64,000 bases of DNA from Acidobacteriota bacterium (GTDB lineage: Bacteria; Acidobacteriota; Vicinamibacteria; Vicinamibacterales; UBA2999): contig JAUSDY010000076.1 of assembly GCA_030650395.1 (NCBI GenBank), positions 64,090-128,089 of the forward strand. The letters are read 5' to 3'. Numbering within the stretch: the stretch's first letter is position 1; each line of letters opens with the position of its first letter. The notes under the pieces were generated by a model. It saw only the letters and a list, made by a program, of their open reading frames with translations. It searched no databases and had not been told where the DNA came from. The position numbers and the translations under genes were made by a program. Positions 3,159 to 35,196 of the stretch are shown piece after piece.

Positions 3159-4103
3159 ATGATACTATCCGCTCGCTTGGCGCCTCGAGTGTTGTTCCGA
3201 TCGTCGCCGCCTTCGCCGGGCCGTACGGGTACGACAGTGGAGATCACCCGCGCACGTGCCGGCTGGCGCTACGTGCACTTCGCGGTGCGGCAGATCGTTC
3301 CCGGCAAAACGTGGGTGCACGACACGGGCGCTGAAGAGTGCTGCCTGGTGCTGCTCGCGGGACTGTGCCGGGTTTCGTACAGGCACCCCATCAAGGGGCG
3401 CCCTACTAACACGGGGAGCGACGCGCCGGAGATCACCACCACGCTCGGTCCGCGCCGCAGCGTCTTTGCCGATTACCCGCACGCGCTCTATCTGCCGCCG
3501 CGGACATCATTTCGCGTGCAAGCCGACGTCGCCACCGAGCTCGCCGATGGGCGGGCGCCGTCGCGACAGCGTCTTCCACCCCAGCGCGGCTGCCGCGCCG
3601 GGGGCCCGGCTGAACCACGACACATCCGTCCGGAAGACTGCGGATTCGAAATTCGCGGCGGCGGCAACGCGACGCGGCAGATCGTCGATATCATGCCGCC
3701 GGCGTTCGCCGCCGATCGCCTGCTGGTCTGCGAGGTTTTCACGCCGGGCGGCAACTGGTCGAGCTATCCTCCGCACAAGCACGATCAGGATCGTCCGCCG
3801 GCCGAAGTGAAGCTCGAGGAAATCTATTACTACCGCTTCGAGCATCCTGATGCGTACGGGTTCCAGCGGCTTTATGATGGCCGCACCGATCGCACCGTCA
3901 CGGTCGGTCATGGCGATGTTGTAACGGTGAGATCCGGTTATCACCCGTTTGTCACGGCGTACGGATATAACGCTTACTACCTGAACGTCCTGGCCGGCAC
4001 GCGCCGCTCGATGGCGGCCAGCGACGATCCTCGTTATGCCGCGTTTCGGGCCTGGCCGCCGCCCGATCCGCGGGTGCCAATGCTGGCGCGGCCACTGAAG
4101 TAA
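3159..4103 (+). CDS. iolB: 5-deoxy-glucuronate isomerase IolB
   Basis: This is the C-terminal 314 codons of the 581-aa track ORF. Motifs are PPHKHDQD...EEIYYYRF...FQRLYD...TVGHGDVVTVRSGYHPFV...GYNAYYLNVLAG. The upstream 267 codons are antisense to iolE. The ATG at 3159 is in frame; GTG at 3237 is an alternative start. Confidence 0.85.
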   Translation: MILSARLAPRVLFRSSPPSPGRTGTTVEITRARAGWRYVHFAVRQIVPGKTWVHDTGAEECCLVLLAGLCRVSYRHPIKGRPTNTGSDAPEITTTLGPRRSVFADYPHALYLPPRTSFRVQADVATELADGRAPSRQRLPPQRGCRAGGPAEPRHIRPEDCGFEIRGGGNATRQIVDIMPPAFAADRLLVCEVFTPGGNWSSYPPHKHDQDRPPAEVKLEEIYYYRFEHPDAYGFQRLYDGRTDRTVTVGHGDVVTVRSGYHPFVTAYGYNAYYLNVLAGTRRSMAASDDPRYAAFRAWPPPDPRVPMLARPLK

Positions 4104-4144
4104 TGTGGTGTCCGGCTGGACCCGGACCCTTACAGGAGGAAGTA

Positions 4145-7538: not shown

Positions 7539-9026
7539 ATGACCCCCGTCCTCGAAATGCACGGCATCCGGAAGGCCTTTCCCGGCGTCGTGGCGCTCGA
7601 CGGCGTGGATCTCACGCTGCACCGCGGCGAAGTGCACATGCTGCTCGGCGAGAACGGCGCGGGCAAGTCCACCCTGATGAAGATCCTGAGCGGCGCGTAC
7701 CGCAAGGACCAGGGTCGCATCGTCGTCGACGGCAAGGACGTCGAGATTCAAAGCCCGCGCGATGCGCTCGCGCTCGGCATTCGCGTCATTTATCAGGAGC
7801 TCAATCTCATCCCCCACTTGTCGGTGGCGGAGAACATTTTTCTCGGTGCGGCGCCTACTCACAGGTTTGGCGTCATCGACTGGCGGCGGCTATCAGCGGC
7901 GACATCGCAACTGCTGACCGATCTCGGCATGAACCTCTCGCCCGACACGCCGCTGGGTCAATTGAGCCTGGCGCAACGGCAGATGGTCGAGATCGCGAAG
8001 GCGCTGAAGGGTCAAGCGTCGATCCTCGTGATGGACGAGCCGACCTCTGCGCTGACCTCGCGCGAAGTCGATCAGCTCTTCGCATTGATCGCGCGGTTGA
8101 CGGAACGCGGCGTCGCCATTGTTTACATCACGCACCGGCTCGACGAGGTCTATCGAATCGGGCAGCGGGTCTCGGTGCTCCGCGACGGACGACGGGTCAC
8201 GACCCAGCCGCTGTCGGATGTGACGGTCGCCGAGCTCGTGCGATTGATGGCCAACCGCGAGGTCGGCGATCACTTTCCGAAGCAGCGCACGACGCCGGGC
8301 AAGGAGCTGCTGCGGGTCGAGGGGCTCGGTCGCCGCGGCGCGCTGAGCGACATCAGCTTCTGCCTCCGCGCCGGCGAAGTCGTCGGCATCGCGGGCCTGC
8401 TCGGCGCCGGCCGCAGCGAGCTGGCGCGCGTGATCGCGGGCGCCGATCGATCGGACAGCGGAACTATCCAGTGCGATGGGCAGGCCACGAACTTCCGCAC
8501 GCCCGCCGACGCCATTCGGAGGGGCATCGGTCTGCTGCCGGAAGATCGCAAGGCCGAGGGCCTCGTCGCCGGCCTGACCGTCGCGCGAAACACGGCGCTG
8601 CCCCACGGCCGGCGGCTGGCGCGCTCCGGTTTTCTGCCCCGCGGATGCGAGGAGCGCCTGGCCGAGCCGATCGTGAAGGACTTGCGCGTGAAGGCGACGC
8701 CGACGCAGGAAGTGAGGCTGTTGAGTGGCGGCAATCAGCAGAAGGTCGTGCTCGGCAAATGGCTGGCCGGCGATGCGCACATCTTCATCTTCGACGAGCC
8801 GACGCGCGGCGTCGACGTTGGCGCGAAGATCGAGATCTACAACCTGATGAATCGCCTGACGGCATCGGGCGCCGGCATCATCATGATCTCGTCGGAGCTG
8901 CCAGAGCTGCTCGGCATGAGCGATCGCATTCTCGTGATGTGCCGCGGCCGCATCCGCGCGGAATTCAGCGCCGCCGACGCCACGCAGGAGCGTGTTCTCA
9001 GCGCCGCCCTGGGGTTGGCGTCATGA
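7539..9026 (+). CDS. sugar (probably inositol/ribose-type) ABC transporter ATP-binding protein with duplicated ABC domains
   Basis: Walker A motifs are GENGAGKST and GLLGAGRSE. The signature motif is LSGGNQQKV, and Walker B-like motifs are ILVMDEPT / IFIFDEPT. ATG 7539 is preferred over the 7512 track start, which lies inside the hairpin repeat. Confidence 0.9.
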   Translation: MTPVLEMHGIRKAFPGVVALDGVDLTLHRGEVHMLLGENGAGKSTLMKILSGAYRKDQGRIVVDGKDVEIQSPRDALALGIRVIYQELNLIPHLSVAENIFLGAAPTHRFGVIDWRRLSAATSQLLTDLGMNLSPDTPLGQLSLAQRQMVEIAKALKGQASILVMDEPTSALTSREVDQLFALIARLTERGVAIVYITHRLDEVYRIGQRVSVLRDGRRVTTQPLSDVTVAELVRLMANREVGDHFPKQRTTPGKELLRVEGLGRRGALSDISFCLRAGEVVGIAGLLGAGRSELARVIAGADRSDSGTIQCDGQATNFRTPADAIRRGIGLLPEDRKAEGLVAGLTVARNTALPHGRRLARSGFLPRGCEERLAEPIVKDLRVKATPTQEVRLLSGGNQQKVVLGKWLAGDAHIFIFDEPTRGVDVGAKIEIYNLMNRLTASGAGIIMISSELPELLGMSDRILVMCRGRIRAEFSAADATQERVLSAALGLAS

Positions 9027-28679: not shown

Positions 28680-28805
28680 TTATGCCAACTTCATGACGCG
28701 ACCGATCGCGGCCGACATCCGGTCCCACTCACGCGCCTCGATGGCCAGTTGGCGCCGGCCGGAAGTGGTCAGCCGGTAGTACTTGTTGGTGTCGGCTGTC
28801 AACAT
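28680..28805 (-). pseudogene. PadR-family regulator remnant (C-terminal 41 codons; winged-helix part missing)
   Basis: My translation MLTADTNKYYRLTTSGRRQLAIEAREWDRMSAAIGRVMKLA* aligns to the C-terminus of the intact PadR at 47288 (..NNRRARFYAITATGRRRLAAEASSWERTVAMVNRLL). It ends 7 nt before the ADOP start. It begins 3 nt after the propeller gene stop. Confidence 0.6.
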
Positions 28806-28808
28806 CAA

Positions 28809-29817
28809 TCACCGGACTTTCGGCGCAACGAGGATCCGCTTCGGCCCGGTGCCGCGTTCGAACTGGATGTTCGCCAGCACTTTCCGAGTCGCGATGTCGA
28901 TGGCGGCCACCGCGTGCGAGTCCCACAGGCTGACGAACAGCCTCGCCATCCGGGCGCACCGTGAACCAGTGCGGGAACTTGCCGACCCGGATCTGCGCGA
29001 TCTCCTTGAGGTCGCGCGTGCTGACAATCCGAACGAGATCGTTGACGCAGTCGGTGACCCACAGCTCCGTGTCGTTCTTCACCAGCTGCAGCGCGTGCGT
29101 GTAGGTATTGAGATAGGGCTTCGGGACGCCCTCGGGCAGCTGCGCCAGCTCGACGCGCCGAGTGACCGAGCGGCTGTCGGGATCGACCATCACAAAGCCA
29201 ATCAGGTTCGACAACGCCGTGTAGATGATCTTGCCGTTCTCAGTCGGCTCGAGCGGCCGCACGCCGTCGCTGGTCGGAATGTGGTGGAGCAGCGCCTGCT
29301 TCGCCGCATCGAAGACCGCGATCGCGTTGCCGTACTGCGCGCCGACATACACCCGCGAGCCGTCGGCAGACGTGTAGGCGTCGTGTGGTCCCTCGTTCAT
29401 GGCAATCTTCTTGACGAGCCGCAGCGGATCGAACTCGACGATCGCGACCGCGTTCTCGCCGCGCATCGGCATGTACGCGAAGCGGCCGTCCCTGGTCAGC
29501 GTCATCTGGTTGGGATCTTTCCCCAGCGGAATCTGCGCCGTGACCTTGCCGGATCGCGCGTCGATGACCTGGAAGTTGCCGGTGCGATCGCTGCCGATGT
29601 AGATCTTCGAGCCGTCGGCCGACGCGGCCAGCCCGTGCGGTTTCGGGTCGGTCGTGATGCGGCGGATCTCGGTGAACGTGTAAGCGTCGACTTCGACGAG
29701 CTGATCGGAATCGCCGAGGGTCACCCACAGCGTGACGTCCTGCCGTTGGGCAGTCACGCTCGCCGTCACGGTGATGGCAAGCAACAAGGTAAGGCCGCCG
29801 AGCCATGAGCGCATCAT
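28809..29817 (-). pseudogene. YVTN/lactonase-type beta-propeller protein with a 1-nt frameshift near 28944
   Basis: The main frame reads ...FPHWFTVRPDGE and then degenerates into Arg/His-rich sequence. The +1 frame (track ORF 28809..29027) reads ..RLFVSLWDSHAVAAIDIATRKVLANIQFERGTGPKRILVAPKVR*, a normal final propeller blade. Removing the G in ggcGagg restores PDGRLFV. Confidence 0.65.
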
Positions 29818-29921: not shown

Positions 29922-29997
29922 GGGCCAGTAGCGCAGTTGGGAGCGCGCATGAATGGCATTCATGAGGTCACCGGTTCGATCCCGGTCTGGTCCACCA
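29922..29997 (+). tRNA. tRNA-Ala (anticodon GGC)
   Basis: Cloverleaf folded by hand. The acceptor stem is GGGCCAG/CTGGTCC with the G3:U70 Ala identity pair. The D arm is GCGC-AGTTGGGA-GCGC. The anticodon arm is CATGA-ATGGCAT-TCATG. The T arm is ACCGG-TTCGATC-CCGGT, and CCA is encoded. Confidence 0.95.
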
Positions 29998-30301
29998 TCC
30001 TTCGCTCATGAATGCAGGCGAAGGATGCCCACCATAGCGCCGGAGGCGCGACGGTGGGCCCCAAGGCGTCCGAGCATGAGCTTCGGATGGCAGGCCCAGT
30101 CCCTGCTCAATCAATTCGGAGCTACGGTTGGCAGGTCACGTCGCTATCCTGGCTGAGCAACCGTCCGTAGTTCGCAGAATCTGCCATGCCGTCCCGGTAA
30201 CAGGCTCCCAATTCCTTCACCGCTCGGACTCCTCGCGAGCGCTTTCACACTGATTTTAAGGCCCTTTCCCTCAGGCATTCGTCTTGCGTCACAACGCGAG
30301 C

Positions 30302-30556
30302 ATGCCATTCCCTCAGACCATCGTCTACGTCATCAAGAGCGTGGCCGACCCGACTCGCTACTACACAGGTTTGACTTCTAACCTCGCTGTGCGGCTCGAC
30401 GCGCACAATGCCGGGCGTGTGCCCCACACCTCCGACGGTAAGCCTTGGATCATCGACGTTATCGTGGAGTTCTCCGACGAACGTCGTGCCGTTGCGTTCG
30501 AGAAATACCTGAAGTCTGGCTCGGGTGGCGCCTTCGCACGCCGACACCTCAGGTGA
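30302..30556 (+). CDS. GIY-YIG nuclease-superfamily small protein (YhbQ/UPF0213-like)
   Basis: MPFPQTIVYVIKSVADPTRYYTGLTSNLAVRLDAHNAGRVPHTSDGKPWIIDVIVEF..RRAVAFEKYLKSGSG matches the GIY..YIG..R..H..E..K pattern. Confidence 0.75.
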   Translation: MPFPQTIVYVIKSVADPTRYYTGLTSNLAVRLDAHNAGRVPHTSDGKPWIIDVIVEFSDERRAVAFEKYLKSGSGGAFARRHLR

Positions 30557-30688
30557 GGCTGCCGGAACACCTCTTGAGGGAAAGACACCTCCCGGAGTGC
30601 GTTCCCCCGTATTCCCCTTCGTTGTCCCCCATTTGCCAGGCTTTGACCAAAGTCGGCAGGGGCGAACCACTGCTAGAATTGGCCTGTT

Positions 30689-31285
30689 GTGGCTGCAGTC
30701 AAGATCGATCCTCTTGAGCTCACGGGACCGTGGGCTGAGGGCCACGTACTCGAGCGCCAGCACACGATCAGCAGCGAGTTCATCGGTCACGATTCGAACG
30801 GCCACGCACAGTTTGATACCAAGCGAAGCGAGCTCGGCGAGCTGGTATTTCGACTAAAGAACCGGAGTGACAAAGCAACCTTGGATCCGATCGCTGACAC
30901 AGCGGCGGAGTTCGTTCTCGCTTCTGGTATTCAGTTCGATGCCGTGGTCCCGGTGCCACCGTCTCGACGCCGAGCTTTCCAGCCGGTCGTAGAGATCGCG
31001 ACTGCCCTTGGCGCCCGGCTCGCGAAACCGGTTTTGATGAGCGTGGTCTCCAAGGTGAAAGAAACTCCGGAGCTCAAGGACGTGTTCGATTTCAGTGAAC
31101 GTCAGAAGCTGCTGCAGGGCGCATTCGCTGTTGATAAGGAAGCCGCCAAGGGCCAGCGCCTGCTTCTCATCGATGACCTCTACCGATCAGGAGCTACGGC
31201 AGCCCTCGTCGCGAAGGAACTCTCGGAAGCTGGAGCAGCAGCCGTCTATTTCCTTGCCATGACGAAGACTCGGACCCGATCATGA
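30689..31285 (+). CDS. ComF/ComFC-like phosphoribosyltransferase-family protein lacking the ComF zinc finger
   Basis: 198 aa with a GTG start. The PRTase core is VVPVPPSRRRAFQPVVEIA...GQRLLLIDDLYRSGATAALVAKELSEAGAAAVYFLAMTK (the acidic-hydrophobic-DD-x-x-SGAT PRPP loop). An extended -10 (TGcTAGAAT) lies at 30671-30679. Confidence 0.75.
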   Translation: MAAVKIDPLELTGPWAEGHVLERQHTISSEFIGHDSNGHAQFDTKRSELGELVFRLKNRSDKATLDPIADTAAEFVLASGIQFDAVVPVPPSRRRAFQPVVEIATALGARLAKPVLMSVVSKVKETPELKDVFDFSERQKLLQGAFAVDKEAAKGQRLLLIDDLYRSGATAALVAKELSEAGAAAVYFLAMTKTRTRS

Positions 31286-31818
31286 CGAAGGTCTTCATCG
31301 CTGGTTCCCGACAGATTGCTCAGCTTCCGGCCGAGGTGAGGAGCCGCATCGACACGATGGTCGAGAAGGGTTTTCAGATCCTTGTCGGCGACGCCAACGG
31401 TGCCGACAAGGCCGTCCAGCGATACTTGGCCGACAGGGCGTACCCGAACGTCCTCGTGCACTGCATGGAGAACCATTGCCGAAACAATGTTGGCGCGTGG
31501 CCCACGTTCCAAGTCGCCTCCCCTCAGGGCGCTCGCGGCTTCGACTATTACTCGCTTAAGGACCGCGCAATGGCCGACGCTGCCGAGTACGGCCTGATGC
31601 TCTGGGATGGAAAGAGCAAAGGAACCATCAACAATGTTCTCAACCTGTCGCGTGATAACAAGCTTGTCGTCGTTTACGTGGCACCTGCGAAGAGCTTCCA
31701 GACAGTTCGGTCCGCTGAGGATCTCAAGGCTCTCCTAACGAAGGGTGACCCATCGAGCGTTGGCAAATTGGTGCACGAACTTCACTTGGATTACCTGCAA
31801 GCCAATGCGGCGGGATAG
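31282..31818 (+). CDS. DprA-like / SLOG-superfamily Rossmann protein
   Basis: The start forms an ATGA overlap with the PRTase gene. VFIAGSRQ...GFQILVGDANGADKAVQRYL...LKDRAMADAAEYGLMLWDGKSKGTINNVLNL parallels the DprA core (VGSR...SGlArGIDaaAH...RNRiia..S....EA...SGsL.TA). Confidence 0.7.
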   Translation: MTKVFIAGSRQIAQLPAEVRSRIDTMVEKGFQILVGDANGADKAVQRYLADRAYPNVLVHCMENHCRNNVGAWPTFQVASPQGARGFDYYSLKDRAMADAAEYGLMLWDGKSKGTINNVLNLSRDNKLVVVYVAPAKSFQTVRSAEDLKALLTKGDPSSVGKLVHELHLDYLQANAAG

Positions 31819-32024
31819 CCGAAATAAGAACTGGGCGGCCTACTGCTTAGGCGTTGGACTAGAATCGGTCAGATCTGACCATGGCAAGGCGAAGGGAAGC
31901 CAATCAGGCGCTAGGCAGCGTCCTCCTATTTATCATCGCTCTGCCAATCTTCTTCGCCGATTGGGTTCAAGAGACACTTGGTATGCGTGCTCGCGTCTTC
32001 GATGAGAGGGGTCTTCGCATCCGA

Positions 32025-32351
32025 TCATGTCTCCTGGGACTCGATCGCGGAGATACCAGCCAGAATCACAGGATCTTGGTTCGGGAACTCCGCCACAAGC
32101 GACAGTCGCCCCCCCATTGCCTCCACGTATCCACGCAGCGTGGAAATCAAGAGGTCGCTACGCTGCTCAAGTCTGGACACGCTGTCCTGGCCAATACCAA
32201 GGACCACAGCCATTCGCTTCTGCGTCAACTTGTGCGCTTGCCGCAGTTCCTGAAGTGTCTTTTCTTCAGCGATCAACGTAGCAGCGCGTGCTGCAATCTT
32301 CTTGCGGCGAGCAGGGCTCAGCTGCTTTCGAATCTGATCTAGATTCTTCAT
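32025..32351 (-). CDS. XRE-family HTH antitoxin (HigA-like)
   Basis: 108 aa. LQELRQAHKLTQKRMAVVLGIGQDSVSRLEQRSD is an XRE HTH. The start forms an ATGA overlap with the upstream toxin gene. Confidence 0.8.
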   Translation of the reverse strand: MKNLDQIRKQLSPARRKKIAARAATLIAEEKTLQELRQAHKLTQKRMAVVLGIGQDSVSRLEQRSDLLISTLRGYVEAMGGRLSLVAEFPNQDPVILAGISAIESQET

Positions 32352-32746
32352 GATCTTTGTTTCCCCTTCTTCGTCGCGCCTCTAGTCGTTTTGGTCTTCT
32401 TCACAATTGCGAGATGAGTATCGAAACGACCATCTGCTCTTTCAATTAGCTGCCTGTAGAACCGTTTTTCGCTACCACCGGATTTGTCTCCACCGCACAG
32501 CACGATGGCTCTGCGGTTTGGATCGAATGCGAAGGCGAAACGCCAGACGCCGTCCGCGGCATCGAAACGCAATTCCTTCATATTCTTGTGTCGAGAACCG
32601 TTGAGCGTATCCACGCGTGGACGTCCGAGTTGCGGCCCAAAGACCTCAAGAACAGCAACATGCGCAAGAAGTTCGTCCTGGACGTCTTCGGGGAGCACAT
32701 TGAACTCAGCCACGAACTTGTCGTGCAGGTCTACGACCCAACCCAC
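32348..32746 (-). CDS. RelE/HigB-superfamily toxin (Gp49/DUF891-like)
   Basis: 132 aa. The motif is MKELRFDAADGVWRFAFAFDPNRRAIVLCGGDKSG..EKRFYRQLIERADGRFDTHL, and the protein has a basic C-terminal tail. Confidence 0.75.
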   Translation of the reverse strand: MGWVVDLHDKFVAEFNVLPEDVQDELLAHVAVLEVFGPQLGRPRVDTLNGSRHKNMKELRFDAADGVWRFAFAFDPNRRAIVLCGGDKSGGSEKRFYRQLIERADGRFDTHLAIVKKTKTTRGATKKGKQRS

Positions 32747-32979
32747 GGCCCATTATGGCATGCGACGCATATGTAGTCCAGACCATATTCTGCCGGCGAT
32801 TATGGGCCGTCCCGCTTTGAGCGTCATTGCCGTTAAGCTGAGACGAACAGAGTTCGAGACGAGGCTCAGGGTTCCAACTGCGAAGCTGTGGGTCCACCAT
32901 CTTCCTTCGCCGGCTGCGGCCGTCTCCAGCCCCCTGAAATCGTTTGACGCGGACGCCGCGCGGGCTTACGCTCCCGTGC

Positions 32980-35196
32980 ATGAGAAGGCACTCGCGAACG
33001 ATCGGAGCGGTTTTCGCCCTCGGGCTGCTCGGCGCGGCGGCCCTGACGGTCTCCTCTGCCCAAACGCCACCGAGGCGTGGCACCGAGAACGGCGAGTGGC
33101 GCACCCTGGGCGGTGACGTGGGGCACACTCGATACTCTCCCCTCGACCAGATCACGCCGGCGAACTTCGAGACGCTGAAGGAGGCCTGGCGCTTCAGCCC
33201 CGTCGACGTGGTCGGTCCCATGACGGCGAGAGCCACACCGAGCTACGTGGGTGGCAGGCTCCTGAGCGTCGCCGGCCCGCGGCGCCACGTCGTGTCGATG
33301 GATCCCACCAGCGGCAAGTTGCTGTGGAGTTGGGTCGAGCCTGAGACCTACCGTTCGAAGTACTCCATGCGCACCGCCTATGGAAAGGGCGTGGCGTACT
33401 CCGAGATCAACGGCAAGGGTGTCGTCTACATCGCGACGCCGGGCTTCTTCCTGGTGGCGTTGGACGCCGACACCGGCCAGCCGCTGCCCAACTGGGGACG
33501 GCCGGTTGGCCTGCCCGGCTTTCCGCGCACGGGCGTCGTCGATCTGGCCGAGGATCTGATCCGCGATTGGGATCCGTGGATCCGGCGAAAGCAGAAGTAC
33601 AACGCGAACGAGGGTGTGCCCCTCGAACTGGGCTACATCACCAGCTCCTCGCCACCACTCGTCGTCAACGACGTCATCATCGTCGGCAACTCCGCCGAGC
33701 AGGGGTATCACCAGACGCGGCAGGAGAACGTGCCCGGTGACATCCTCGCCTACAGCGCACGCGACGGGAAGTTCCTGTGGAAGTTCCACGTTATTCCGCG
33801 GCCGGGCGAGGTTGGTCACGAAACGTGGGAGAGCGACGCCTGGCGCACGACGGGTGACGTGTCGTCATGGGCCCCGCTGTCGGGCGACAACGAGCGCGGC
33901 ATCGTCTACGTGCCGACCAACAGCGCGACGGTCGACATGTACGGCGGCTTCCGGCCGGGCAACAACCTGTTCGCAGCCAGCGTGATCGCACTCGACGTCA
34001 AGACCGGCAAGCGGCTGTGGCACTACCAGATGGTGCATCACGACATCTGGAACTACGACACATCGACCGCGCCGATCGCGATGGACGTGACCGTGGGGGG
34101 GCGGCGCATTCCCGCGGTCTTCCAGGCCACGAAACAGGCGATTCTGTACGCCTTCAATCGCGTCACGGGCGAGCCGATCTGGGGATTCGAGGAGAAGCCC
34201 GTTCCGGCGTCAAAGGTGCCTGGCGAAAAGCTCTCGCCGACGCAACCGTTCCCCATCAAGCCGGCGCCATACGAGTTCATTGGCCGCAGTGCCGAGCACG
34301 TGATCGATTACACGCCGCAGATCAAGGAGCTCGCGCTCAAGCGCGTCACCGCGCAGGGCTTGCTCGCGCCGCCGTTCAACCCGGTCGTCCATCGCGGCAA
34401 CAAGGAAGGCCTCATCACGGGGCGCTTCTATCCTGGCGAAACCGGGGGCACGAACATTACGCATCCGCCGGCAGCCGATCCGACAACGGGCATCATTTAC
34501 ATTCCCTCGCATAGCGGCGGCGGTGCGCGCGCGGTGGTTCCCGGAAGCGAGATGGATTGTTTCGGGCAGACGGGAACCACGGTTTCCCGATGGGTTGCCA
34601 CGAGCGCGCTCTGCCCGGCCGAATCGGTGACGGCCGCGACCGAGATGTACCCGGAAGCGGCGAAGAAGGCCGGCATCATTCCGAGTGCGGCGGGTGCGGG
34701 CCGTACGGCCGGGGGCGATGATGCACCACCACCCGCCGGCGGCGCCGGCCGGGGCCCAGCCGCAGCGGGTGCCGCGGCTGGCAGCGATCCACTGGCCGGC
34801 TTCCCAACGCTGTTCAAAGGACCGGTCGGCCGCATCACCGCGATCGACTTGAACACGGGCGAGCATCTCTGGGTGATCCCGTACGGCGATGCGCCGCCGC
34901 AGCAGCAGGACGCGATTCGCAATCATCCGCTGCTGAAGGGTGTCGACGTGAATCCGAACCTGGGCCGCACGGGCCTTGGCGGCCTGGTCGTCACGGCGAC
35001 CATGCTGCTCGCTCCCGGCCAGACCGCGGATGGCGCAAGCAAGCTGTTCGCGATCGACAAGCGCTCGGGCAAGCGGGTCGGCACCCTCGCGACCAACGGT
35101 CTCTCCCGTTACGGGATGATGACCTATATGCACCAGGGCAAGCAGTACATCGTCGTGCAGTTGTCGAACGGGCTGCAGGCGTTCGCGCTGCCGTAG
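32980..35196 (+). CDS. PQQ-dependent (quinoprotein) dehydrogenase, 8-bladed propeller family
   Basis: Signal peptide [28 protein letters not shown]. The motif is [18 protein letters not shown] with repeated W-motifs. A Gly/Ala/Pro low-complexity insert lies near the C-terminus. ATG 32980 is preferred over 32944. Confidence 0.85.

Follow-up and report, generated by a model that had tools for sequence, protein, structure and literature searches.

A window of 64,000 nucleotides from an Acidobacteriota bacterium of the Vicinamibacterales lineage UBA2999 (GenBank assembly GCA_030650395.1, contig JAUSDY010000076.1, positions 64,090 to 128,089, forward strand) was analysed for an islet of 2.9 kb between a gene for tRNA-Ala(GGC) and a gene for a pyrroloquinoline quinone (PQQ)-dependent dehydrogenase. 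The islet is very likely a decayed, non-mobile relic of integrative elements of the large serine recombinase (LSR) type. This reading is carried by an attachment scar at the distal end, the homology of the cargo genes to LSR elements, intact relatives, an attP site, two alternative C-termini of the recombinase and partly deleted forms elsewhere, all of which were observed directly. An original prediction, made from the letters of the window, had described the region as a fixed remnant of a tRNA-targeting element. The remnant was borne out by the match of the scar to an attachment-site profile and by the cargo homology. Targeting of the tRNA was supported as well, but the enzyme family is that of the large serine recombinases and not the usually expected tyrosine integrases.

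The two ends of the islet are defined by the following features.

29922-29997, + strand: tRNA-Ala(GGC) (ARAGORN; Rfam tRNA, 62.4 bits)
29988-29997: 10-bp common core TGGTCCACCA at the tRNA 3' end, B arm plus core of attB
29989-30005, + strand: proximal repeat copy GGTCCACCATCCTTCGC, the last 9 nt of the tRNA plus 8 nt of trailer
32856-32889, + strand: P-arm scar of attP, with GGTTCCAACTGCGAAGCTGT at 32870-32889
32890-32910, + strand: distal core GGGTCCACCA and B'-like TC(TTC)CTTCGC, containing the distal repeat copy
32891-32910, + strand: distal repeat copy GGTCCACCATC-TTC-CTTCGC, with the 3-nt insertion TTC

The tRNA gene is intact, and 12 relatives share its sequence with 100% identity. The 11-mer GGTCCACCATC is made up of the final 9 nt of the tRNA and TC, and an exact second copy of it is located at 32891-32901. 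The proposed att duplication is real: the 11-mer recurs once in the window, which holds two copies, compared with six on both strands of the 5.41-Mb genome. Calculated from this genome count, about 0.001-0.002 copies are expected by chance in a given same-strand stretch of 3 kb, and a mere background repeat, one of two objections foreseen in the original prediction, was not found. The interior had also been described as AT-richer. Between the repeat copies (about 29.8-32.9 kb) the G+C content was 0.52-0.61, compared with 0.64-0.69 on either side, and the drop coincided with the two copies. The accessory genes that had been named (GIY-YIG, phosphoribosyltransferase (PRTase)/DprA-like and HigBA-like) were all recovered. 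An Rfam scan of 29.5-33.3 kb returned the tRNA as its sole match. No recombinase was found in the islet among the open reading frames (ORFs) of the window, and tblastn searches of 29998-32910 with five LSRs of the family described below detected nothing but 12 codons encoded by the tRNA. Apart from the direct repeat, an 11-nt perfect inverted repeat links 29956-29966 in the anticodon arm and variable region of the tRNA (GCATTCATGAG) with 30005-30015 in the loop of the trailer hairpin (CTCATGAATGC); it derives partly from the palindromic TCATGA of the anticodon stem.

The distal copy is supported as an attR scar of elements that would integrate into tRNA-Ala(GGC) by means of an LSR. Identity to the tRNA ends there after GGTCCACCA(TC), i.e. 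after 10-11 nt, and a P arm lies upstream. An nhmmer profile of 11 attR sites, all from other genomes, was searched against the whole 5.4-Mb genome and matched the window at 32868-32899 with E 6.3e-5. The other significant match, at C126:60541-60607 with E 7.4e-5, was the far end of an intact sister element of the same genome. The composite motif GGTTCCAAC-N(8-13)-[TG]GGTCCACCA occurred once genome-wide, at the 32.9-kb junction, and the scar shared 88% identity across 43 nt with the attR of locus L085/L086. The full attR arrangement consists of the P arm GAGCCAGC..GGTTCCAAC, 10 or 11 nt and then (T/G)GGTCCACCA; it was present at the scar with the outer part GAGCCAGC degenerate. The inner part, GGTTCCAAC-10/11 nt-(T/G)GGTCCACCA, was also detected behind tRNA-Ala(GGC) in further species of the genus and in unrelated metagenome contigs. 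G020 has one copy, at a distance of 6.7 kb from the tRNA; G010 has a tandem of three and an additional fragment, and the copies in G005 and G008 are degenerate.

Translated from the minus strand, the scar gives MVDPQLRSWNPEPRL, a decayed trace of the C-terminal recombinase tail; beyond it the frame deteriorates. The statement that no recombinase remains thus holds for ORFs, but not to the last codon, since the scar retains a remnant of the recombinase gene of about 14 codons. The sequence before the distal repeat had been taken for a weak resemblance to the tRNA T-arm. This was rejected, as GGTTCCAAC is 5 nt out of the tRNA register, is conserved in the scars of many genomes and encodes SWN; it belongs to the conserved P arm of attP, which encodes the recombinase tail.

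These observations bear on the alternative that the locus holds no element relic, the repeat being a chance repeat or a tRNA-trailer motif in a variable hot spot that was filled by homologous or illegitimate recombination. The exact repeat is merely 11 nt long, CCTTCGC is common (2,198 copies) and forms part of the trailer hairpin behind several tRNAs, and the surroundings of the tRNA are heavily rearranged within the genus. However, the independent profile matched exactly at the scar, with the next best genome matches at E above 4, the composite motif is unique in the genome, the 88% identity is to a bona fide attR and the same cargo order ends in an attR in locus L088. A locus without any relic is therefore considered very improbable.

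Elements with the same att site and a recombinase, for which a search had been proposed, were found in G006, G020, L084 and L085/L086 (with a frameshifted LSR), and an unintegrated attP was found in L094. Together with L077 these define the LSR element family. In G006 and G020, a minus-strand gene of 520-541 aa directly abuts the tRNA and overlaps its 3' end, and its last codons, MVDQTGIEPVTS followed by a stop, are the reverse complement of the 3' part of the tRNA. G013 holds a 140-aa LSR fragment in the same tRNA-abutting position at a contig end. Homologues in metagenome contigs were 73-93% identical, and the Pfam domains Resolvase, Recombinase and Zn_ribbon_recom identify the proteins, by domain content, as large serine recombinases; recombination activity of the family is predicted. 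Full or partial copies were present in 11 of 37 genomes of the genus. The 6.7-kb element of G020 is closed by GGTTCCAACTGGCGCTGTTCTGGTCCACCA. Locus L084 begins in the tRNA 3' end and continues with the LSR, the PRTase gene pair and an attR (E 1.4e-11). In L085/L086 the tRNA is followed by the frameshifted LSR, the PRTase pair, further genes, the attR and then the trailer hairpin of the window (98% over 54 nt).

The attachment site is part of the recombinase gene itself. Nine of 14 aligned P arms encode, on the minus strand and in the LSR frame, the sequence (M/L)VDxxxxSWNxxxxWLxxxExxRxxA with a stop after 26-30 codons, in which GGTTCCAAC is the codon run for SWN. Both C-termini occur in public gene calls, the tail in P0252, P0245 and P0244 and MVDQTGIEPVTS in P0269. 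In L094, P arm, core and P' arm are contiguous (GGTTCCAACTTCTGAGGAGT TGGTCCACCA AACCTTCC..) and the LSR reads through them with no tRNA involved, which identifies an intact attP. As attP is located inside the 3' end of the LSR gene, integration exchanges the C-terminal tail of the enzyme. The spacing between GGTTC and TGGTCC is 10 nt in the tRNA (attB) and 15 nt in well-kept P arms (attP), including the scar and L094. In LSR sites, the motif for the zinc-ribbon domain is 5 bp nearer to the centre in attB than in attP, according to the model of the LI integrase (PMC3783163). The spacings of 10 and 15 nt match this geometry rule, and GGTTC would by analogy be the zinc-ribbon-domain (ZD) motif. 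The crossover is predicted at CC in GGT-CC-ACCA.

A conserved acidic protein of 58-102 aa (..CRELLG.EA.ELSDE.V.A.R.HA..MAHVLVE..) is always encoded directly upstream of the LSR on the same strand and is a candidate regulator or recombination directionality factor. Examples of its gene are listed below.

L077: 4261-5407
L084: 1577-1768
L086: 2781-2957
G020 (L059): 3800-4108
C126: upstream of the LSR

The intact sister element in the genome of the window comprises about 9.9 kb (C126:~60517-70440). Its LSR, at 68844-70391, is 65% identical to the LSR of G006 and reads into a 44-nt 3' fragment of tRNA-Lys(CTT). This location indicates that LSRs of the family can use displaced tRNA 3' fragments as targets. 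The fragment resembles the attR of a tyrosine-integrase island: it has CTGACACAC repeats, as found beside an intact tRNA-Lys with a tyrosine integrase on C139. The far end of the sister element shows GAGCTGGTTCCAACTCGCGAAAATGC and GGCTCACCA, followed by the same trailer hairpin as in the window.

Tyrosine integrases of the textbook kind target tRNA 3' ends, and a classical tRNA island, inserted by such an enzyme and leaving a direct repeat of the tRNA 3' end, was weighed against the LSR element. The genome does encode a tyrosine integrase beside tRNA-Lys on C139, and a second class of scars in G010 and G024, which includes about 20 nt of genuine tRNA sequence (..GCGATCCCGGTCTGGTCCACCA), could have been left by such elements. 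At the distal end of the islet, in contrast, identity to the tRNA stops after 10-11 nt (<16), and the P arm upstream encodes an LSR tail. No tyrosine integrase was seen beside the tRNA in the islet, in the loci of 20 relatives or in the metagenome contigs that contain this tRNA, whereas LSR genes and stumps recur, and the cargo is that of LSR elements. A tyrosine-integrase origin is thus extremely unlikely, and the islet is further treated as a relic of LSR elements.

The cargo comprises two operons.

30622-31799, + strand: segment with the promoter, the PRTase gene and nearly all of the 178-aa gene (blastn)
30689-31285, + strand: ComF-like PRTase, 198 aa, candidate toxin, with an intact phosphoribosyl pyrophosphate (PRPP) loop LLLIDDLYRSGAT
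31282-31818, + strand: DprA/SLOG-fold protein, 178 aa, candidate antitoxin, overlapping the PRTase stop by 4 nt
32025-32351, - strand: helix-turn-helix (HTH) antitoxin (XRE/HTH_37), HigA-like, 108 aa (HTH_37, 28.5 bits, cut-off 27)
32348-32746, - strand: Gp49/HigB-like (RelE-fold) toxin, 132 aa (PF05973, E 7e-21, 74.5 bits, cut-off 23.9)

The PRTase matched the C-terminal domain of PsyrT (PADLOC, E 7.3e-19), ShosT (E 1.9e-6) and comF (TIGR00201, E 2e-12); PDB sequences gave nothing beyond weak generic PRTase matches. It was 88-91% identical at the amino acid level to the partner genes in L077, L084, L085/L086 and L087. The 178-aa protein had no match in Pfam, NCBIfam, PADLOC or PDB sequences. 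Its family comprised 3,968 homologues at E up to 0.001, for which nearly all existing source names were 'hypothetical protein', and the best 120 listed (P0001-P0120) were 71-92% identical. The AlphaFold2 model of the 178-aa protein (pLDDT 91.6) had ShosA as the top Foldseek match (8zva, E 8.8e-5, TM 0.57), followed by DprA of H. pylori.

Both genes of this operon are present in the window, as in the elements of the family. Segment 30622-31799 showed 85-87% DNA identity to L077, L084, L087 and L088, and 81% to L085/L086 from 30592 onwards, and the cargo proteins of the pair were 87-91% identical to their counterparts in related contigs. L077 and L084 bear LSR genes; L087 and L088 show no complete LSR in view. 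In L077, L084 and L085/L086 the conserved gene of 58-63 aa precedes the pair, which lies at a distance of about 1.1 kb from the LSR start. In L088, the pair is followed by HigA and HigB, and a well-preserved attR (E 8e-12) lies about 150 nt beyond HigB; an ORF for an FtsX domain is located between the pair and HigA. This order matches the right half of the islet, and 30622-32910 is best read as the right-hand part of one element. The HigB-like gene precedes the antitoxin gene with a 4-nt overlap, placing the pair by sequence among the type II HigBA systems; the HigB homologues are named RelE/ParE family toxins. The HigA-like protein was 87.5% identical to a protein of G018 at the same tRNA locus.

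In ShosTA, a DprA-like antitoxin counters a PRTase-bearing toxin, and an acidic pair in the PRPP loop is needed for toxicity (PMC11961720). With this precedent, the PRTase of the window is expected to act as a toxin and its DprA-fold partner as the antidote. By analogy, this pair and HigBA plausibly stabilise the relic and may provide phage defence of the abortive-infection type.

The 0.56 kb next to the tRNA have a different composition.

29999-30024, + strand: native tRNA trailer hairpin CCTTCGC-N12-GCGAAGG, the B' side of attB, identical in G016
30025-30301, + strand: spacer from the trailer to GIY-YIG with hairpins like repetitive extragenic palindromes, homologous in six other species (MAFFT)
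30302-30556, + strand: GIY-YIG domain protein, 84 aa (Pfam PF01541, E 3.8e-12)
30557-30621: junction of the GIY-YIG module and the LSR-element cargo, where L086, L087 and G010 have a 3'-truncated LSR on the opposite strand

Counting tRNA-Ala(GGC), the trailer hairpin follows three tRNA-type 3' ends in the genome. In G005 it was found after an attR-type scar (41 nt, 97.6%). Since the same hairpin follows the attR of L085/L086, the junction after the tRNA of the window corresponds to an unoccupied attB. The sequence directly 3' of the tRNA is, as read here, the native trailer and an intact attB rather than an element end, and it would be open to new integrations. A search for a P' arm (TCCTTTCxTTTCC..GCCGGTGCGGTTAC..) at 29998-30107 gave an alignment to six P' arms that was no better than shuffles. 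A putative LSR remnant beside the tRNA was also rejected. Its tblastn score (E 1e-5) was carried by the 12 tRNA-encoded codons, and the remaining 8/33 identities were at the level of shuffles.

Sequences homologous to the trailer, the spacer (about 280 nt) and GIY-YIG occur in G016, G008, G015, G010, G018 and G021, which makes seven species with that of the window, and the homology to all six ends at the GIY-YIG stop codon. Conserved synteny of the islet content, the other objection foreseen, was thus limited to the first 0.56 kb. In tblastn, GIY-YIG was a single copy in the genome, and a multi-copy homing cassette was rejected. In G008, a degenerate P arm and GGGTCCACCATCCTTCGCTCAC are located 37 nt after GIY-YIG and form a secondary core. 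The LSR residues left behind GIY-YIG on the opposite strand were about 1-52 in L086, 1-70 in L087 and 112-232 in G010, and G021 holds a frameshifted relic of the 178-aa gene at this place. The boundaries between GIY-YIG and what follows are given below.

Window: 30556/30557
L086: 5797-5801
L087: 4979-4994
G010:C1: 31481-31843

The GIY-YIG stop is a recurrent boundary, with truncated LSRs, a scar (G008) or the PRTase promoter (window) behind it. Such a boundary could arise if stepwise deletions were halted by selection on GIY-YIG, or if the recombinase end were replaced in the manner of a cassette. Judged from these comparisons, the GIY-YIG module is probably older than the PRTase/HigBA part and of separate origin.

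Partly deleted forms of the elements were found at several loci. L079 consists of the tRNA, a 150-aa C-terminal stump of the LSR, the PRTase pair and an attR, LSR stumps abut GIY-YIG in L086, L087 and G010, and G018 has retained HigA with HigB deleted. G010 carries 3-4 tandem scars. On G010:C1 (locus L060) these lie at 7589, 9617, 12804 and 14504, comprising three attR of the LSR type within 12 kb after tRNA-Ala(GGC) and one of the second type. The second type, with its tRNA-derived stretch of about 20 nt, was also detected in G024, 100 nt after the tRNA. By their scars, at least two element classes use tRNA-Ala(GGC).

One metagenome run covered the whole stretch and is probably its source. 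It gave the contiguous form only and no joint, although contigs show presence and not absence of a form; other runs contained fragments from relatives. In runs X2/X3, short contigs of a relative, with about 96% identity over the aligned parts, showed the joints 29998->31999 and 32789->29989. The first connects the tRNA end to the 3' side of HigA; the second connects the region upstream of HigB, after about 100 unaligned nt, to the core and trailer hairpin. These joints point to a mini-islet that would carry only HigBA between the cores.

A further alternative is that the islet is not fixed, but resembles a cis-mobilisable element (CIME) that is excised in trans by a resident or incoming LSR together with a directionality factor. 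Two core copies flank the islet, elements of the family stack in tandem and the intact LSR of the same family on C126 is 65% identical. Excision by LSRs requires attL and attR, each with one P-type half-site (PMC3783163). The proximal site of the islet, however, is a pure attB without a P' arm and the distal P arm is degenerate, so that a competent pair of attL and attR was not found. The resident LSR on C126 is tied to a core of the tRNA-Lys type, GGCTCACCA, and the run with the whole stretch contained no joint. Mobilisation in trans is therefore quite improbable, which leaves a fixed relic of LSR elements as the preferred reading.

The right flank of the islet is formed by the promoter and gene of the PQQ-dependent dehydrogenase.

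32928-35196, + strand: promoter and gene of the PQQ-dependent dehydrogenase

Homology to the orthologous PQQ loci of relatives begins at 32928-32939, about 20 nt past the scar. The PQQ protein and the tRNA DNA were used as queries in 40 relatives for an empty site; synteny was broken throughout the genus. In these relatives, the tRNA and the PQQ gene were never adjacent and the gene upstream of PQQ was different in each.

Several points weigh against a simple relic of LSR elements. The empty site that had been anticipated, with the tRNA or GIY-YIG directly before the 32911 flank, was not found in any of the 40 relatives, a comparison that carries no information given the broken synteny of the genus. 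With the tRNA always apart from the PQQ gene, and a different gene upstream of the latter in each relative, the right junction would be both an att scar and the endpoint of a rearrangement or deletion, the course of which is beyond reconstruction. The comparators were all different species or unbinned metagenome contigs. On the proximal side there is no detectable P' arm or LSR remnant, and the completeness of the element rests on the scar and the cargo homology. The position of the GIY-YIG module between tRNA and cargo is one we infer from other genomes. The scar itself is degenerate, and its profile E-value, though good, falls short of overwhelming. No stop closes the tail frame, in which only about 9 of the first 14 residues resemble the family. 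Beyond the distal core, the B'-like sequence agrees with the native trailer only for TC(TTC)CTTCGC.

Rearrangements were also observed on the other side of the tRNA, where the region at about 18.7-22.6 kb of the window was compared with the relatives' loci L055, L056, L062, L066, L069 and L070. In most of the genus, the gene at about 20.85-21.64 kb is situated downstream of tRNA-Ala(GGC) in inverted orientation, and in G023 its two neighbours (about 18.77-20.84 kb) follow as a block downstream of the tRNA. In the genome of the window, the genes at 18.77-21.64 kb are upstream of the tRNA instead, and the conserved upstream gene is about 7 kb away from the tRNA, with genes for an ADOP permease and a beta-propeller protein and a PadR stump among the intervening sequence. 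At 28680-29817, the PadR-family gene is cut to its last ~42 codons and a YncE-like beta-propeller ORF runs into the stump; the C-terminal ~75 residues of this ORF look out of frame (Arg-rich). Judged by gene order, tRNA-Ala(GGC) is a rearrangement hot spot.

In the intact elements, the LSR recombines attP with the 3' end of tRNA-Ala(GGC) at the common core (T/G)GGTCCACCA, and the integrated element lies between the tRNA core and the native trailer hairpin. After integration, the LSR gene abuts the tRNA and ends in tRNA-encoded codons (MVDQTGIEPVTS*). The far end is an attR, consisting of the P arm that encodes the detached tail of 26-30 aa and the second copy of the core. At the present locus, the order of events would be as follows. 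An old mini-islet with GIY-YIG, the residue of an earlier occupant, would have ended in a core copy. A later LSR element would have integrated at this secondary core behind GIY-YIG, as preserved in G008. Subsequent deletions would have taken out the secondary core, the P' arm and the LSR and, in the genome of the window, all sequence up to about 70-100 nt before the PRTase start, including the small gene beside the LSR. The right-hand 2.3 kb would have survived, with the PRTase/DprA-like operon, the HigBA-like pair and the degenerate attR. Lacking both a recombinase and a P' half-site, and with a degenerate attR, the relic cannot excise and should be immobile. It probably persists because it carries two toxin-antitoxin-type modules.

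The recombinases resemble those of phiC31, Bxb1, the A118/LI integrase, SPbeta and the ccr genes of SCCmec, which likewise combine Resolvase, Recombinase and Zn-ribbon domains in about 520-550 aa. Shared with known LSR elements are short att sites, a small common core and a recombinase gene at the very edge of the element. The inward shift of the outer motif (here GGTTC) by 5 bp in attB is shared with the LI integrase model (PMC3783163). In contrast to known LSR elements, attP is located inside the 3' end of the recombinase coding sequence and the tail is exchanged, and the window holds a scar and cargo without the enzyme. The family also targets a tRNA 3' end, which is usually the territory of tyrosine integrases. 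Degenerate tyrosine-integrase islets at tRNAs share the accessory block of low G+C content, the repeat of the tRNA 3' end, the loss of the recombinase and the retention of toxin-antitoxin genes. They differ in that the repeat is here an LSR core of 10-11 bp, the distal copy is preceded by an attP arm and the relatives carry serine recombinases. Archaeal integrases of the SSV1 type have their attP within the int gene, which is split on insertion into a tRNA gene. They share an attachment site within the recombinase ORF, with tRNA integration altering the gene product. However, they are tyrosine recombinases of archaeal viruses that are divided into two large parts, whereas the bacterial LSR only swaps its last 26-30 residues for 12 encoded by the tRNA.

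The PRTase/DprA-fold pair shares its two-gene operon with ShosTA (PMC11961720, PMC12961424) and PsyrTA/RqlHI, and it has the acidic PRPP-loop pair on which ShosT toxicity depends. ShosT has 424 aa, with an N-terminal hydrolase/pyrophosphatase domain fused to a C-terminal PRTase (PMC11961720). The PRTase of the window is, in contrast, a bare ComF-like domain of 198 aa without the N-terminal pyrophosphatase domain. Compared with ShosA, its partner is a bare Rossmann core of 178 aa that lacks the SAM domain and had no match to a ShosA or PsyrA sequence profile. Unlike PsyrT, the PRTase has no RecQ helicase, and positions 526-686 of the 689 profile positions were matched. By its domain composition, the pair is not a member of ShosTA. 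The HigBA pair is ordinary by sequence, with no notable difference from HigBA modules: a toxin gene first, an overlapping HTH-XRE antitoxin gene and a palindromic upstream region.

Many tRNA genes have worn-out islands behind them, and the relic itself is ordinary. The element family behind it appears undescribed, as the literature searched held no account of acidobacterial LSR elements that target tRNAs, nor of LSR genes that contain attP, which is no proof of novelty. A minimal PRTase/DprA-fold pair as standard cargo was likewise not found described in this literature.

A wider reading is put forward tentatively and with slightly more doubt than belief. Acidobacteria would harbour a family of elements whose LSRs target tRNA 3' ends (Ala-GGC, and in the sister element a fragment of tRNA-Lys(CTT)), in which attP in the 3' end of the LSR gene would act as a physical switch. 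These elements would carry a near-constant PRTase/DprA cargo, stack at the target and decay to islets with toxin-antitoxin modules, which would be the last parts to survive once the recombinase is lost. Integration would swap the tail of 26-30 aa (..VDxxxxSWNxxxxWLxxxExxRxxA) for 12 tRNA-encoded residues, and excision would restore it.

LSRs attract practical interest as tools for site-specific integration, and it is unusual for them to target a tRNA. The attB of this family (about 20 bp of tRNA plus the trailer) and its attP are now defined by many natural examples of attL, attR and attP. The PRTase/DprA-fold pair can be seen as a reduced relative of ShosTA/PsyrTA. Its conservation is extreme, with 70-90% identity across thousands of metagenome proteins, although no family model covers it, and this companion of the recombinase is a good candidate for a module that stabilises the element or acts against phages. 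The partly deleted forms, with recombinase stumps, a possible HigBA-only mini-islet and tandem scars, illustrate how toxin-antitoxin genes can outlive the element that carried them. Finally, the integrated and the free enzyme differ at the C-terminus, which offers a testable coupling of directionality or expression to the state of integration. If the switch operates as proposed, the exchange of the tail could bias the enzyme, or how it is expressed, according to whether the element is integrated or free.

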